A DNA stretch of 64,000 bases from Escherichia phage 212: sequence record PQ765507; one strand, written 5' to 3'. Under the pieces are notes generated by a model. It saw only the letters and a list, made by a program, of their open reading frames with translations. It was not told the DNA's origin and ran no database searches. Made by a program: the position numbers and the translations under genes. Numbering within the stretch: the stretch's first letter is position 1; the number at the start of each line of letters is the position of its first letter. This document shows, piece after piece, positions 8,493 to 12,024 of this stretch.

Positions 8493-8978
8493 ACAAACAA
8501 TTGCTAAAGACGGTTCAGCTCGTGGTATTGTCCACGGGCTAGGCCACACGCCTGAATACATTGTATGGATTGGCATGAAAGCCCGGTGTTGTAATCCAAC
8601 ACATATTGGATATTCTCGATATGGCGGTCGTGTGGTATCACTGTTTGCGATGAATGGTTGCATGATTTTGAAAGATTTTATACAGATATGGGGCCACGAC
8701 CCACTGACAAACATCAACTCGACCGAACAGATAATAATAAAGGTTATTCTCCAGATAACTGCCGATGGGTTAGTCCGGGTGAGAATGCTTTAAATAAGCG
8801 CACGTATAATAACAACAAGTCTGGATTTAAAGGAGTCTCGTTTGATAAACGAGCTTTGAATAAACCATGGCGAGCCACTATTATGCGAAATAAAAAACAA
8901 ATTCAAGTCGGAGCTTTTGCAACTCCAGAAGAAGCAAATGAAGCTCGATTAAAATATATGGAAGAACATAATGTCTAA
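8485..8978 (+). pseudogene. frameshifted HNH-family homing endonuclease with AP2-type DNA-binding domain
   Basis: Two overlapping frames (track ORFs 8485..8793 and 8658..8978) jointly encode W-GMK-RC-NP...YGGR / GITVCDEW...DMGPRP...DNNKGYSPDNCRWV plus a C-terminal AP2-like domain; the frame breaks near 8630-8640. Confidence 0.65.
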
Positions 8979-9180
8979 AGAAATGTTAGGTTTCCAAGCA
9001 CGTGTAGTTGAAGAACATGACCAGCTGGTTTTGAAAATTAATGCTCTTGAAGAATTTATTAAGGGCGGTGTTTTTGAAACTCTCGATGCTCGTCAACAAG
9101 GTTTTTTGATTTCACAGTTAGACGCGATGGGCGCATATGCTCATGTACTGGCAACTCGTATCTCTTATTTTGGTGAATAA
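8971..9180 (+). CDS. hypothetical protein
   Basis: ORF track 69 aa, tightly packed after the endonuclease remnant. Confidence 0.45.
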   Translation: MSKEMLGFQARVVEEHDQLVLKINALEEFIKGGVFETLDARQQGFLISQLDAMGAYAHVLATRISYFGE

Positions 9181-9183
9181 ATT

Positions 9184-9453
9184 ATGATTAAGCATTTCAA
9201 TGTGTCAGACCGTGACATCAAAGTTTCAAATCTCCGGGGTCATCATTATGCAGGAATAGTTTACTGCGGTAAGCTCATCAAGCATGAAGGTGATGTTCAC
9301 TATGGTTGGTTGGAATGTGATGAAGTAGTTGTTGGGGAATTCCCTGACCCGAATTCTGATACATTTGATGCTAATGACCGTTTGTATTATGGCGAGCTTC
9401 ACATCCGGGGAATCGTCGGTATCGATGAGGTCGTAAATGATTCAGAAGAGTAA
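9184..9453 (+). CDS. hypothetical protein
   Basis: ORF track 89 aa. Confidence 0.45.
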   Translation: MIKHFNVSDRDIKVSNLRGHHYAGIVYCGKLIKHEGDVHYGWLECDEVVVGEFPDPNSDTFDANDRLYYGELHIRGIVGIDEVVNDSEE

Positions 9454-10030
9454 AACCTGGGAGCATCTGAAAAAGATGCCCTCCTTTCTTTATACAAAGG
9501 AAGACTTAAACCCCGAATCCCTGCAGAAGATTGTAGACACGGCCAGGTATTCATTGCGTAAAGACCCAGGTCAGGACCGTGAGCAAGTCATGCAAAGATG
9601 TATGGTGGCCACAATGGCTGAACAAGCTATTGCTAAATGGACCTCCGGTTTTTTATGTGGCGGTGATGAAGATTACGATAATCCTTATTCCTTTGCATTT
9701 GATGTAGTTTCGAAGGAAGGGGTGAGAATCGAAGTCAAGACCCACCAGTCTGGGTCCAAATGGATATCCGTGCATACTGGCCACCAGGGCGATTATCCAC
9801 ATGGTTACGGGATTAATCTTGGTCCTTTTATGCAACACAAGCTTGCTGACCTTATGATTATGCTCGATGTAAAAGAGACTCTCAAAGGTTATAGATTTAA
9901 ACCAAAATTCCTTGCTGGGCCTGGGGCTTTCGTTCCTGAGTCTGGTCTTGTGCAGAAGTCACAAGGGGATGGCTGGTACCTCCGTTCTTGTTCAGAAGAA
10001 AAATTTCCCTATCACCGGTTTACAAGCTGA
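9437..10030 (+). CDS. hypothetical protein with possible PD-(D/E)xK nuclease motif (positional candidate for denB)
   Basis: 197 aa; motif FDVV-x8-EVK; T4 denB (185 aa) lies downstream of rIIB. Weak, position-based. Confidence 0.35.
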   Translation: MIQKSKTWEHLKKMPSFLYTKEDLNPESLQKIVDTARYSLRKDPGQDREQVMQRCMVATMAEQAIAKWTSGFLCGGDEDYDNPYSFAFDVVSKEGVRIEVKTHQSGSKWISVHTGHQGDYPHGYGINLGPFMQHKLADLMIMLDVKETLKGYRFKPKFLAGPGAFVPESGLVQKSQGDGWYLRSCSEEKFPYHRFTS

Positions 10031-10077
10031 ACCAACTGTGTAATAATGTCCTCATACCAACAAATGAGGACATTATC

Positions 10078-10353
10078 ATGGAACACGTTACTACTCACAA
10101 CATCAAACAAATTCTTATCCAAGCACTCAAAAACAACAACATCAATTTTCCAACCCATGAAATTTTTGATGTGGTATTCAACGAAGTCCAGGGTCAAGTT
10201 GCATATTATGACGTTATCGTTTATCTTTCAGAATTTGAAGTCTACCATCTGACTGAAATTGCTTTCTATCTCTATCGTGGGACTGCAGATTTTACTGGGG
10301 TCGTGAATGCAGTTGGCGCATATAAAGAAGTTAAAGAGCAAATGCACAATTAA
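10078..10353 (+). CDS. hypothetical protein
   Basis: ATG with GAGGA SD inside track ORF 9988..10353. Confidence 0.5.
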   Translation: MEHVTTHNIKQILIQALKNNNINFPTHEIFDVVFNEVQGQVAYYDVIVYLSEFEVYHLTEIAFYLYRGTADFTGVVNAVGAYKEVKEQMHN

Positions 10354-10357
10354 AATA

Positions 10358-10399
10358 GTGTACATCAGTATGGAGTCTATGCATAATGATTCCATACTG
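10358..10399 (+). promoter_or_regulatory. early sigma70-type promoter with -10 inside an inverted repeat (PeSL-like)
   Basis: GTGTACA, CATAAT -10, flanking arms cagtatggagtc / gattccatactg. Confidence 0.6.
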
Positions 10400-10426
10400 A
10401 GTTACCAAATAGACTGGAGAAACAAA

Positions 10427-10690
10427 ATGAAATTTAAATTTTACTATGTCAAGCATAAAGTTACTGGGGAATTTGTTGCATTTACAACTTCATCCAATAA
10501 TCAAGGTGATACTTTTACTTCATTGTTCTTATCTAGATGGGATTCAGACCAGCCTTATTTGTCCACAAAAGAGCATCTTCAACGTATGGCGAAGGGCGAG
10601 CTAAACGATTCTTGGGATAATATTGTGAATAATTGTATCAAGAAAGCTATCCAAGAAAATCAACTTGAAATCATTGAGGTGGAATTGTGA
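10427..10690 (+). CDS. hypothetical protein, tandem paralog A
   Basis: MKFKFYYVKHKVTGEFVA...; GGAG SD; paralog of the next ORF. Confidence 0.55.
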   Translation: MKFKFYYVKHKVTGEFVAFTTSSNNQGDTFTSLFLSRWDSDQPYLSTKEHLQRMAKGELNDSWDNIVNNCIKKAIQENQLEIIEVEL

Positions 10691-10953
10691 ATATTAAATT
10701 ATATTATGCCAAGCACAAAGTTACAGGTATGGTTGTTGCTGCTATGTATGACGCGTCAGGCGATGGTGATGATGTTATTACAGAGTTATCTCTTTCTGAT
10801 TGTAAATTTCTTCGTCCGTTGGTTGCATCAAAGCGTGATTTAAAAAAGCTTATTGATGGTAAGCTGGACAATATTGATGGTATAGATATTTTTTATGACC
10901 TCCGCGTCGCATTGTCTGATGGATTGATTGAGATAAGGGAGGTGATATTTTGA
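10687..10953 (+). CDS. hypothetical protein, tandem paralog B
   Basis: GTG start overlapping the previous stop; N-terminus NIKLYYAKHKVTGMVVA parallels paralog A. Confidence 0.5.
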   Translation: MNIKLYYAKHKVTGMVVAAMYDASGDGDDVITELSLSDCKFLRPLVASKRDLKKLIDGKLDNIDGIDIFYDLRVALSDGLIEIREVIF

Positions 10954-11043
10954 GCAGCAAAACCTGGTGCCTTATCTGGATGTTGTGTATCCCAGTAATT
11001 TGCGTTTGTTTTAGTTTATTATTAATGAAACTTGCATAAAAGA

Positions 11044-11093
11044 GTGTACATCTCCAGTGGTTGTAGTATAATGAACCTATCAACTACTGGAGA
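11044..11093 (+). promoter_or_regulatory. early promoter with -10 inside an inverted repeat (PeSL-like)
   Basis: GTGTACA, TATAAT, arms tctccagt / actggaga. Confidence 0.6.
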
Positions 11094-11098
11094 TGATT

Positions 11099-11209
11099 AT
11101 GAAAAAGTTACTTAAAGCCATTTGGAACATGTTTGTACTGTTTGTTGTCCTGAGCATTTTCCCAATTGTTTTTATGATTGACCATGTACGCGTATTCTTT
11201 AACTTCTGA
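11099..11209 (+). CDS. small hydrophobic peptide (36 aa)
   Basis: ATG after GGAG SD; MKKLLKAIWNMFVLFVVLSIFPIVFMIDH...; below track cutoff. Confidence 0.35.
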   Translation: MKKLLKAIWNMFVLFVVLSIFPIVFMIDHVRVFFNF

Positions 11210-11219
11210 GGAAAATATT

Positions 11220-11366
11220 ATGGGTAATCGAATTTATAAAGTAAAGCTGCATGGTAAAGTGATTAAAACCCTTAGCTTTAATGCTTATATCAGTGCTGAT
11301 TGTGCTCGTGATATCCTCATTGAGGAAGGTTATAGCAAATACATTCAAATTGAAGAAATTCTTTAA
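11220..11366 (+). CDS. hypothetical small protein
   Basis: Preceded by the conserved CTGAGGAAAATATT-ATG translation initiation region. Confidence 0.5.
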   Translation: MGNRIYKVKLHGKVIKTLSFNAYISADCARDILIEEGYSKYIQIEEIL

Positions 11367-11383
11367 TTACTGAGGAAAATATT

Positions 11384-11596
11384 ATGAAACTTTTTAAAGA
11401 TGTGGTAGTCGGTGAGAGCTTTGTATTGCATAATGGCCAACAACTTATTCGTATTTCTCCTTTGCAAGTTGGGACCGAATTACAACCTGTTAATGCTACA
11501 GACCTCAATGATTCAACTAAGCGTTTTTGCGTAGGTCCTAGTGTACAGTGTCTTACTGTTGATGAACTGATGGCTATTTCTGTTGACGCTGAATAA
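11384..11596 (+). CDS. hypothetical protein
   Basis: Same CTGAGGAAAATATT-ATG initiation region; ORF track 70 aa. Confidence 0.55.
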   Translation: MKLFKDVVVGESFVLHNGQQLIRISPLQVGTELQPVNATDLNDSTKRFCVGPSVQCLTVDELMAISVDAE

Positions 11597-11606
11597 GGAA
11601 ATTATC

Positions 11607-11951
11607 ATGTCTAAAATCTTTTTTGGTAATGCTAAGGTGATGTTCTTTAAACAACTCAGCCTTCAGGATGCATCGGCGGCATTCAATCAAAGTATGATTC
11701 CCGGCGTAGATTCAAAAATTATGACGAGTGCTGATTTCGTTTTCGTTCAAGACCCAGAAACAGGCTTTTATCGGTTCATTAAATTTCGTATGAGTATGGA
11801 CCCGTATTATCATAGTGGTTATTATGTAAGCTATGAAAATGTTATCAAAGAACTATGTGATACTTACGGACAGGCTTTGAACCCACTGAACAAGGTTTAT
11901 AATGCTCCCTTTTACACCAGCGGATTTATTTTAGAACAGCTTCAAAAATAG
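11607..11951 (+). CDS. hypothetical protein
   Basis: ATG with AAGGAA SD inside track ORF 11583..11951. Confidence 0.5.
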   Translation: MSKIFFGNAKVMFFKQLSLQDASAAFNQSMIPGVDSKIMTSADFVFVQDPETGFYRFIKFRMSMDPYYHSGYYVSYENVIKELCDTYGQALNPLNKVYNAPFYTSGFILEQLQK

Positions 11952-11987
11952 TGTACAAACTCGTGGGGTCAGAGTATAATGACCCCA
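11951..11987 (+). promoter_or_regulatory. early promoter with -10 inside an inverted repeat (PeSL-like)
   Basis: Near-identical copy of the element at 965..1001: GTGTACAA, TATAAT, arms tggggtca / tgacccca. Confidence 0.65.
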
Positions 11988-12024
11988 CTGGAGCACAAAA
12001 CTTTAACTTACTGAGGAAATTAAT

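Follow-up and report, generated by a model that had tools for sequence, protein, structure and literature searches.

Between rIIB and ndd, Escherichia phage 212 (positions 8,493 to 12,024 of the analyzed window, which is the whole stretch of 64,000 nucleotides (nt) from sequence record PQ765507) carries a block of small genes that we interpret, with a probability of about 0.8, as the rIIB-ndd hyperplastic region of a VR7/SP18-like T-even coliphage (genus Gaprivervirus), consisting of small early genes that point in one direction and are exchangeable as separate cassettes. Both the region and the phage are of a familiar kind, and the block is largely ordinary. Its two most informative genes, DenB and the Sequestin-family DenB.1, have already been characterized in T4, and the unexplained remainder (the pair of PHROG-2390 genes p87 and p88, o93, o48, Ndd.1, o114, the DUF7418 gene, membrane peptides, and hairpins that bury Shine-Dalgarno (SD) sequences) is modestly interesting and unsurprising. 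The current understanding is not overturned; the region is a miniature of how T-even phages keep and trade accessory genes, with a candidate member of the recently recognized anti-Thoeris sponges beside a host-DNA nuclease that itself triggers retron defence, and with conserved uncharacterized small proteins around them.

According to megablast, the block is a part of a T-even phage genome of the genus Gaprivervirus (VR7, SP18, MN01, CJ20, PSD2001 and others). The genomes of this genus share the gene order and are 92-97% identical in DNA over the aligning parts. The whole block is covered by no single relative, the best ones covering 62-85% of it in 2-5 pieces. Between the borders there are 11 intact genes on the plus strand and one broken gene (Table 1), and all open reading frames (ORFs) listed in an earlier sequence-only reading of this stretch are present on the plus strand. 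For each of the 11 ORFs, comparison with orthologues from related phages gives a ratio of nonsynonymous to synonymous substitutions (dN/dS) in the range 0.03-0.23, indicating purifying selection, and hence these are genes rather than chance ORFs. It is extremely improbable that some of the shortest ORFs (29-48 amino acids, aa) are not genes: they are indeed very short, and o48 matches no family, but their dN/dS is 0.03-0.16, they are conserved across genera, each is preceded by a good SD sequence, and two of them have annotated T4 counterparts.

Variation and recombination of the block

Among 47 loci recovered around denB in related phages, the distance between rIIB and ndd varies from approximately 650 bp (denB alone) to 3,727 bp, phage 212 with its 3,533 bp being near the top. 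These intervals contain 36 ORF families, 18 of them singletons (the clustering merges a few families via shared leader sequence), and the earlier description of the block as a hyperplastic early region is thus borne out.

Recurrent breakpoints are observed at 8478/8983 (presence or absence of the HNH gene adjacent to rIIB), 9191/9437 (allele of the DUF7418 gene), approximately 10430-10467/10688 (p87), 11222/11358-11384 (o48) and 11464/11582 (allele of Ndd.1/o114). In particular, o48 is bracketed by two copies of a 29-nt direct repeat, and in IME341 a single copy of this repeat is found exactly at the site of the repeat-o48-repeat arrangement. The promoter cassette at 10358 precedes the p87 junction (10430-10467) by 25-60 nt, and in MN01 a cassette of the type found at 11951 is located upstream of o114, not of ndd. 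Further junctions are situated at the 29-nt repeat or within genes. Overall, differences from the relatives begin or end at gene boundaries, at this repeat, at the conserved ends of p87 and p88, and near the four promoter/hairpin cassettes described below. The gene content would then vary via homologous recombination at the 29-nt repeat, at the ends of the paralogous genes p87 and p88, and probably at early-promoter cassettes.

In T4 and PST, this region has been reported to be shuffled at short conserved regulatory cassettes (PeSLs), as exemplified by the exchange of ndd.4/.5 (PMC4122927 Fig. 6A). The breakpoint pattern observed here fits this view.

Two points weigh against the interpretation given above. 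Recombination at the repeats was deduced from breakpoints, which do not tell loss from gain; moreover, nine proteins of the block (DUF7418, o93, p87, p88, Ndd.6, Ndd.4, o48, Ndd.1 and o114) are conserved and under selection and have no assignable function. A literature search with denB.1, ndd.x and the UniProt Y16x names gave nothing on other genes of the block beyond the Sequestin preprint considered below and one T4 review, and an Rfam search yielded nothing relevant.

Comparison with the T4 block

The ORFs between rIIB and ndd had initially been thought to lack recognizable T4 counterparts, which does not hold for about half of them. A tblastn search against the whole T4 genome identifies DenB.1 (48% identity), DenB (45%), Ndd.6 (48% over 25 aa), Ndd.4 (61%) and Ndd.1 (53%), all at equivalent positions in T4, while o93, p87, p88, o48 and o114 match nothing in the whole T4 genome, either by tblastn or with family profiles.

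The rIIB-denB-ndd-ac block of T4 resembles the block of phage 212 in its borders (rIIB on one side; ndd, ac, 52.1 and gene 52 on the other), orientation and early expression class, and DenB.1, DenB, Ndd.6, Ndd.4, Ndd.1, Ndd, Ac and 52.1 are common to both. Unlike phage 212, T4 has no o93, PHROG-2390 genes, o48 or o114, and only a remnant of the DUF7418 gene. Conversely, ndd.2, ndd.2a, ndd.3, ndd.5 and stp gave no tblastn match in the T4-locus comparison, in which they were not queried singly in the reverse direction. The T4 block, which is removed by the sa-delta-9 deletion, is dispensable on laboratory hosts (PMC6071114).

DenB.1, a member of the Sequestin family

The protein encoded immediately upstream of the DUF7418 gene matches the Pfam model PF21825 with 65.2 bits (E 5e-18; cut-off 24.8), and T4 DenB.1 matches it with 68.6 bits (E 4e-19). 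Proteins with this domain, named Sequestins in a 2025 preprint from the Sorek laboratory (bioRxiv 10.1101/2025.07.12.664507), are short proteins forming antiparallel helical homodimers or tetramers that bind 3' cyclic ADP-ribose (3'cADPR) and inactivate type I Thoeris. According to the same preprint, the T4 member Y16O (64 aa), when placed in phage SBSphiJ, gives resistance to type I Thoeris, and the ligand contacts of SequestinB are R7, E11, Q45 and R59, with E, Q and R needed for activity. T4 DenB.1 was equated with Y16O because it is 64 aa long, matches PF21825 and is the sole T4 segment matching the Sequestin family profile; the equation rests also on orthology and the genomic slot, and on the UniProt-style description. 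The text of the supplementary tables of the preprint contains no Y16O, VR7 or Gaprivervirus.

The protein of phage 212 is similar to the Sequestin family in several respects. Besides passing the Pfam model, it belongs to the same length class (65 aa, within the range of approximately 60-80 aa of the family), being a short stand-alone protein with no second domain. It occupies the slot between rIIB and denB, common with the T4 member, to which it is 48-50% identical over the full length. Finally, its residues R7, E11, Q45 and R59 have the same position numbers as the SequestinB contacts and do not vary among 12 T-even homologues, T4 DenB.1 included (41-89% identity). The upstream ATG at 8971, which would extend the protein to 69 aa, exists only through the abutting HNH gene.

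Hence DenB.1 is probably a 3'cADPR sponge, and it is the one gene of the block identifiable from its sequence as an anti-defence gene. It would be a helical protein, most likely dimeric, sequestering the Thoeris signal 3'cADPR and thereby keeping the host effector ThsA inactive. Several considerations count against this assignment. Family membership is established directly, while binding is deduced from the family and the conserved residues; the SequestinB contact residues were matched by position number alone; and three of the 13 tested PF21825 proteins did not inhibit Thoeris (10.1101/2025.07.12.664507). In addition, the identity to the tested T4 protein is only 48-50%, and both 3'cADPR binding and the oligomeric state are predictions here.

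The earlier suggestion of anti-defence or host-takeover content thus stands for DenB.1, an ORF that had not been singled out, and is overstated for eight genes of the block. The orthologues of DenB.1 in VR7-like phages should carry the label Sequestin-family.

DenB, endonuclease IV

The 197-aa ORF had been noted for a PD-(D/E)xK-like signature, FDVV...EVK, and had been proposed to be the equivalent of DenB or a different nuclease. The signature is substantiated, and the first of the two identities is the correct one, the second not being needed. The protein matches PHROG 1360 (E 9e-80) over residues 1-196 of 197 and is 45% identical to T4 DenB (BLASTP E 1e-56). The signature corresponds to F88-D89 ... 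E99-V100-K101, and there is no variation at E62, D89, E99 and K101 across two sets, each of 25 diverse homologues. In an AlphaFold2 model built from 25 sequences (mean pLDDT, the predicted local distance difference test, 89.3), E62 is located in helix 48-68, D89 just before strand 90-91, and E99-V-K101 in strand 97-103. The model has a restriction-endonuclease-like alpha/beta core and matches PD-(D/E)xK nucleases only, while PDB sequence searches with DenB were empty. From these sequence and model data, the protein is DenB, with the predicted fold of a PD-(D/E)xK nuclease.

Residues known from T4/T2 genetics are also retained: G71, S175 (T4 S176), G179 (T4 G180) and W180 (T4 W181). T4 W88 is replaced by F88, the position still being aromatic. 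Thus, the protein resembles T4 endonuclease IV in sequence, in these genetically defined residues, and in the PD-(D/E)xK fold and motif; it differs by phenylalanine in place of W88 (the W88R substitution kills the T4 enzyme) and by the C-terminus, which is 12 residues longer. The precomputed annotation of every DenB homologue contains Pfam PF26887, while the local copy of Pfam gave none for this protein; therefore, a model for the DenB family exists in a newer Pfam release.

T4 endonuclease IV cleaves single-stranded DNA on the 5' side of dC, and its toxicity prevents cloning (PMC1635256, PMC2175332). Correspondingly, DenB of phage 212 would cut cytosine-containing single-stranded DNA, helping to destroy host DNA and sparing the modified phage DNA. 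DenB has also been reported to cleave the multicopy single-stranded DNA of retron Eco2, which triggers that defence (PMC12916289).

The neighborhood of denB might hint at functional partners, perhaps modulators or inhibitors of this toxic nuclease, among the DUF7418 and/or PHROG-2390 proteins. The DUF7418 gene overlaps the denB start, and in over 20 of the 47 loci it immediately precedes denB; in 24 of the 47, denB is followed by a PHROG-2390 gene, either at once or after one intervening gene; and the toxicity of DenB is too high for cloning. We nevertheless find such a partnership very unlikely: T4 DenB works without the DUF7418 protein, of which T4 retains only a deleted remnant, and without any PHROG-2390 gene; in seven loci denB is alone between rIIB and ndd; and in a collinear phage genome, the fact that two genes are neighbors says little about partnership.

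The tandem paralogues p87 and p88

Two adjacent ORFs, p87 and p88, had been described as tandem paralogues, the second starting with GTG, and our analysis agrees. The proteins are 36% identical (BLASTP E 3e-14), both match PHROG 2390 from end to end, and the GTG start of p88 is a part of a GTGA overlap with the stop codon of p87. By sequence comparison, they are two old, separately conserved lineages of one T-even-specific family, standing side by side. The closest relatives of each are found elsewhere, p87 sharing 68% identity with the only copy in PSD2001 and approximately 50% with Tequatrovirus-like copies, and p88 being 76-94% identical to Dhakavirus-like copies; the synonymous divergence (dS) between the two lineages is saturated or near 1. 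Because of the low identity between p87 and p88, the closer relatives elsewhere and these dS values, their split predates the genera. A recent in-place duplication of one gene, e.g. for dosage, would agree with the adjacency, the same orientation and the translational coupling of the pair, as well as with the single PHROG and the similar N- and C-termini, but all the same observations on identity, closer kin and dS speak against it, and we assign it a negligible probability; separate conservation of the two lineages in other genera led us to reject it.

The usual state in the 47 loci is one PHROG-2390 member just downstream of denB. In Gapriverviruses, four states are observed: both copies (phage 212, CJ20, DCP80 and fDHCT2); p88 only (VR7 and VR25-like phages); the p87 type only (PSD2001, according to its locus); and p88 after an unrelated 51-aa ORF (MN01 and EAWsc9). 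Accordingly, p87 is absent from VR7 and MN01. The possibility that the 51-aa ORF in the p87 slot is a truncated p87 was rejected, as the alignment shows no relation.

The VR7 junction is inside the similar first ~35 nt of p87 and p88, and the PSD2001 junction is inside their similar last ~26 nt, at 10690/10928. Recombination within the pair, between the similar 5' ends (VR7) or 3' ends (PSD2001), could have given rise to the single-copy relatives, or the reverse could have occurred. In the latter case, the two-copy state would be the derived one, a p87-type cassette from a Tequatrovirus-like donor having been inserted beside a resident p88-type gene. This scenario is possible, at somewhat less than even odds. 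Tequatrovirus-like loci carry the p87 type and Dhakavirus-like loci the p88 type; Gapriverviruses have either type or both; a promoter/hairpin cassette is directly upstream of p87; and the p87 slot is filled by the unrelated ORF in MN01 and EAWsc9. On the other hand, junctions inside the homologous ends of the paralogues are the expected remains of deletion from a pair, with the caveat that insertion by recombination gives the same junctions in VR7 and PSD2001, so that the direction is not decided by them.

The PHROG-2390 family is small and confined to T-even phages. A search of 1.84 billion representative proteins with the profile of the PHROG-2390 family gave 17 matches, the convincing ones all being 81-88 aa long. 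Four long proteins (474-1259 aa; P0009, P0017, P0019 and P0020) match the profile through 4-12 short repeats and look like repeat or low-complexity artefacts. A word-index search gave five clusters for p88. At the DNA level, p87-like sequences are found in 446 phage records, many of them from Tequatroviruses, T4 not being among them. The family yields a confident structure model, for which no fold relative was found.

Our best guess, held with low confidence, is that PHROG-2390 proteins are host-interaction or counter-defence proteins. We consider rather unlikely the readings that p87 and p88 represent an undescribed T-even class of counter-defence or host-takeover proteins, with a fold unlike solved structures and two copies for two host targets, and, separately, that the SD-burying hairpins form a conserved 'insulator' of the cassettes. 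The PHROG-2390 family and the conserved hairpin of ndd.4 are reasonable and cheap experimental targets.

Putative early-promoter and hairpin cassettes

The motif GTGTACA-N(12-22)-WTAATG has nine exact matches in the 64-kb window, all on the plus strand, compared to 0.07 expected. With a slightly wider motif, there are 12 sites, and four of them (10018, 10358, 11044 and 11951; upstream of o93, p87, ndd.4 and ndd, respectively) are located in this 2-kb block. Each of these four sites is associated with a stable hairpin, whose 5' arm is between the -35 and -10 boxes and whose 3' arm is at or just after the expected transcription start; none of 200 shuffled sequences was as stable. The same holds for a near-identical copy of the 11951 site at 965-1008 (hairpin of -18.3 kcal/mol). 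Outside the block, hairpins straddling the -10 box are also found at 31609-31660 (-14.6 kcal/mol) and 40436-40490 (-16.2 kcal/mol), and the promoter-motif sites 14370, 30486 and 47235 have no such hairpin.

At two sites, 10018 and 11044, the 3' arm contains the SD sequence of the downstream gene. In the ndd.4 hairpin, pairing of this SD sequence is maintained despite differing arms in 14 distinct sequences (Gaprivervirus, Dhakavirus-like, Tequatrovirus-like and other loci), and at several stem positions the pair types differ on both sides. This SD-burying hairpin is conserved across at least three T-even genera, which suggests that translation of the 36-residue membrane peptide is under selected control. 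On read-through RNA the SD sequence would be buried and translation poor, while RNA started at the early promoter of the cassette itself would lack the 5' arm and be translatable. In the rather unlikely insulator reading mentioned above, each swapped cassette would depend for its translation on its own early promoter, which would help to explain the free exchange of cassettes between genera.

A similar arrangement is known for T4 gene e, soc, I-TevI and gene 49, whose ribosome-binding sites are occluded by a hairpin in long transcripts and become accessible in those initiated at internal promoters. As in these genes, transcription starts downstream of the 5' arm, and the SD sequence is part of the 3' arm; unlike them, where late or middle promoters delay expression, the internal promoter here is of the early type.

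Several observations weigh against the proposed role of the hairpins in translation. The SD sequence is outside the hairpin at two of the four sites. RNAalifold applied to the MAFFT alignment of the ndd.4 leaders gave no consensus structure, the arms being misaligned, and the covariation table is based on per-sequence minimum-free-energy folds anchored on the SD sequence. The promoters of the block are putative, identified as consensus matches only, and a generic sigma-70 scan of the region shows a modest excess (20 found compared to 14.1 +/- 3.7 in shuffles).

Could the hairpins be ordinary intrinsic terminators of classical PeSLs, where a terminator is followed by a promoter? PeSLs have been described for this region of T4 and PST, and the hairpins of the block are stable and intergenic; however, none of the four stems is followed by a U-run or was called in the terminator scan, and each stem straddles the -10 box instead of preceding the promoter, making this explanation quite improbable. 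The cassettes do share with PeSL elements (PMC2839356, PMC4122927) a short conserved AT-rich leader with a sigma-70-like early promoter, an SD sequence and a start codon, situated between small variable genes. The difference is that the PeSL stem-loop is just upstream of the promoter, whereas in the present cassettes it spans the -10 box, lacks a U-tail and includes the SD sequence in two cases. No stem-loop upstream of the -35 box, which defines PeSLs, was seen at the four sites of the block.

The SD regions at 10413-10419, 11085-11091 and 11987-11993 read ACUGGAG, and GGAG is the target of the T4 endoribonuclease RegB (according to the T4 regB annotation). Early mRNAs with this SD sequence may be RegB substrates.

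Table 1. Features of the rIIB-ndd region of phage 212 and its flanks (positions in the window).
Feature	Position	Strand	Comment
rIIA	5276-7510	+	left of the block
rIIB	7512-8492	+	left border
HNH-AP2 homing-endonuclease gene, frameshifted	8485-8978	+	two overlapping ORFs, 8485-8793 and 8658-8978; optional insertion between rIIB and denB.1
DenB.1 orthologue	8983-9180	+	65 aa; alternative start 8971; Sequestin family (Pfam PF21825), candidate 3'cADPR sponge
DUF7418 protein	9184-9453	+	89 aa; Pfam PF24193, E 1.4e-32; PHROG 2237; 17-nt overlap of its 3' end with the denB start
DenB, endonuclease IV	9437-10030	+	197 aa; predicted PD-(D/E)xK-fold nuclease
Early-promoter-like site with hairpin	10018-10082	+	GTTTACA ... 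TAATAAT; -20.2 kcal/mol, z -4.9; 3' arm holds the o93 SD GAGGA
o93	10078-10353	+	91 aa from ATG 10078; PHROG 17571, E 2.8e-61; essentially Gaprivervirus-specific
Early-promoter-like site with hairpin	10358-10405	+	GTGTACA ... CATAAT; -20.6 kcal/mol, z -5.9; upstream of p87
p87, first paralogue	10427-10690	+	87 aa; PHROG 2390, E 4.9e-38
p88, second paralogue	10687-10953	+	88 aa; GTG start; PHROG 2390
Ndd.6-like hydrophobic peptide	10950-11039	+	29 aa; TTG start overlaps the p88 stop; GGAGGTG before the start
Early-promoter-like site in a 15-bp hairpin	11044-11098	+	GTGTACA ... TATAAT; -25.5 kcal/mol, z -6.4; 3' arm holds the ndd.4 SD CUGGAG
Ndd.4 orthologue	11099-11209	+	36 aa; predicted single-pass membrane peptide; 61% identity to T4 Ndd.4
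29-nt direct repeat, copy 1	11194-11222	+	ATTCTTTAAcTTCTGAGGAAAATATTATG; comprises a gene end, an SD and a start codon; breakpoint 11222, seen in most relatives, falls here
o48, optional cassette	11220-11366	+	48 aa; dN/dS 0.03-0.16
29-nt direct repeat, copy 2	11358-11386	+	93% identical to copy 1
Ndd.1 orthologue	11384-11596	+	70 aa; 53% identity to T4 Ndd.1; PHROG 2183
o114	11607-11951	+	114 aa; PHROG 10053, E 6e-51
Early-promoter-like site with hairpin	11951-11994	+	GTGTACA ... TATAAT; -19.4 kcal/mol, z -4.7; upstream of ndd
29-nt direct repeat, copy 3	11999-12027	+	69% identical
Ndd, nucleoid disruption protein	12025-12474	+	Pfam PF06591, E 2.6e-68; 60% identity to T4 Ndd; right border
Topoisomerase gene 52	12861-14240	+	right of the block

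Other genes of the block and its flanks

The broken gene, the twelfth in the block, is located just left of the start that the sequence-only reading had given to the block (8971), and encodes an HNH-AP2 homing endonuclease, the match of the AP2 domain being weak. It is intact (163 aa) in VR7, MN01 and DCP80; in phage 212 it has a 2-bp insertion at approximately 8630-8631, representing either a pseudogene or a sequencing error. The gene is missing from CJ20, EAWsc9, PSD2001 and others, with the breakpoints 8478/8983.

The slot of the DUF7418 gene is occupied by a divergent allele (31% identity) in some relatives, and a profile search found no sequence relative of the DUF7418 protein in PDB. In T4 (NC_000866), an unannotated remnant of this gene is found between denB.1 and denB, on the minus strand just below 167742, and reads MIYMNIGDSDIKES followed by LNAENESWVTETISDSDIYPIEQ. 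In this remnant, the N- and C-terminal ends are fused and the middle ~70 residues are deleted; it matches both ends of a 109-aa protein of a Tequatrovirus relative (L041:1214-1543).

The o93 protein has no match in Pfam, NCBIfam or PDB and forms one cluster among 5.8 billion proteins in the word-index search. Its relatives at 33% identity are found elsewhere in two other loci. The dN/dS of o93 is 0.05-0.12.

Two short hydrophobic peptides had been noted in the block, and indeed both the Ndd.6-like peptide and Ndd.4 have one 19-residue hydrophobic window each (Kyte-Doolittle mean 2.4-2.75). The match of the former to T4 ndd.6 has E 5e-5 in the search of the whole T4 genome, and its dN/dS is 0.14.

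The cassette gene o48 matches nothing in PHROG, Pfam or NCBIfam. It is present in the VR20-like locus L010, JS98 (L039) and PSD2001; in EAWsc9 it follows ndd.1, and VR7, MN01 and IME341 lack it.

Ndd.1 and o114 exist in two allelic forms, and phage 212 has the Dhakavirus form (e.g. that of IME341). Ndd.1 is 97-98% identical to Dhakavirus copies and approximately 57% to the VR7 type, and o114 is 95-97% and 54-56% identical, respectively. No Pfam or PDB match was found for o114.

In the EAWsc9 record (PQ341120), genes of this block have the product names DUF2829, KTSC, MafI, YopX and COesterase, none of which was reproduced by Pfam or NCBIfam at E <= 1 or by PDB-profile searches. In particular, Ndd.1 was rejected as Tad2/DUF2829 (PF11195), as the proteins of phage 212, T4, MN01 and EAWsc9 have no such Pfam match at E <= 1, and the Ndd.1 family profile finds no Tad2 chain in PDB at E <= 10. 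Likewise, KTSC (o114), MafI (o93) and YopX (the DUF7418 allele) were rejected, with no Pfam or NCBIfam match at E <= 1 and empty PDB profile searches. These product names should not be propagated without structural support.

Downstream of ndd, no stp-like ORF was found between ndd and ac, where stp is located in T4, in the ORF list for 12474-12543 or in the T4-locus tblastn, in which T4 Stp itself was not a query. In this short ndd-ac interval, VR7 and MN01 also differ from phage 212. The segment 12543-12852, 3' of ndd, encodes an Ac-like peptide (58 aa, 40% identity to T4 Ac) and an orthologue of 52.1 (46 aa, 87% identity).

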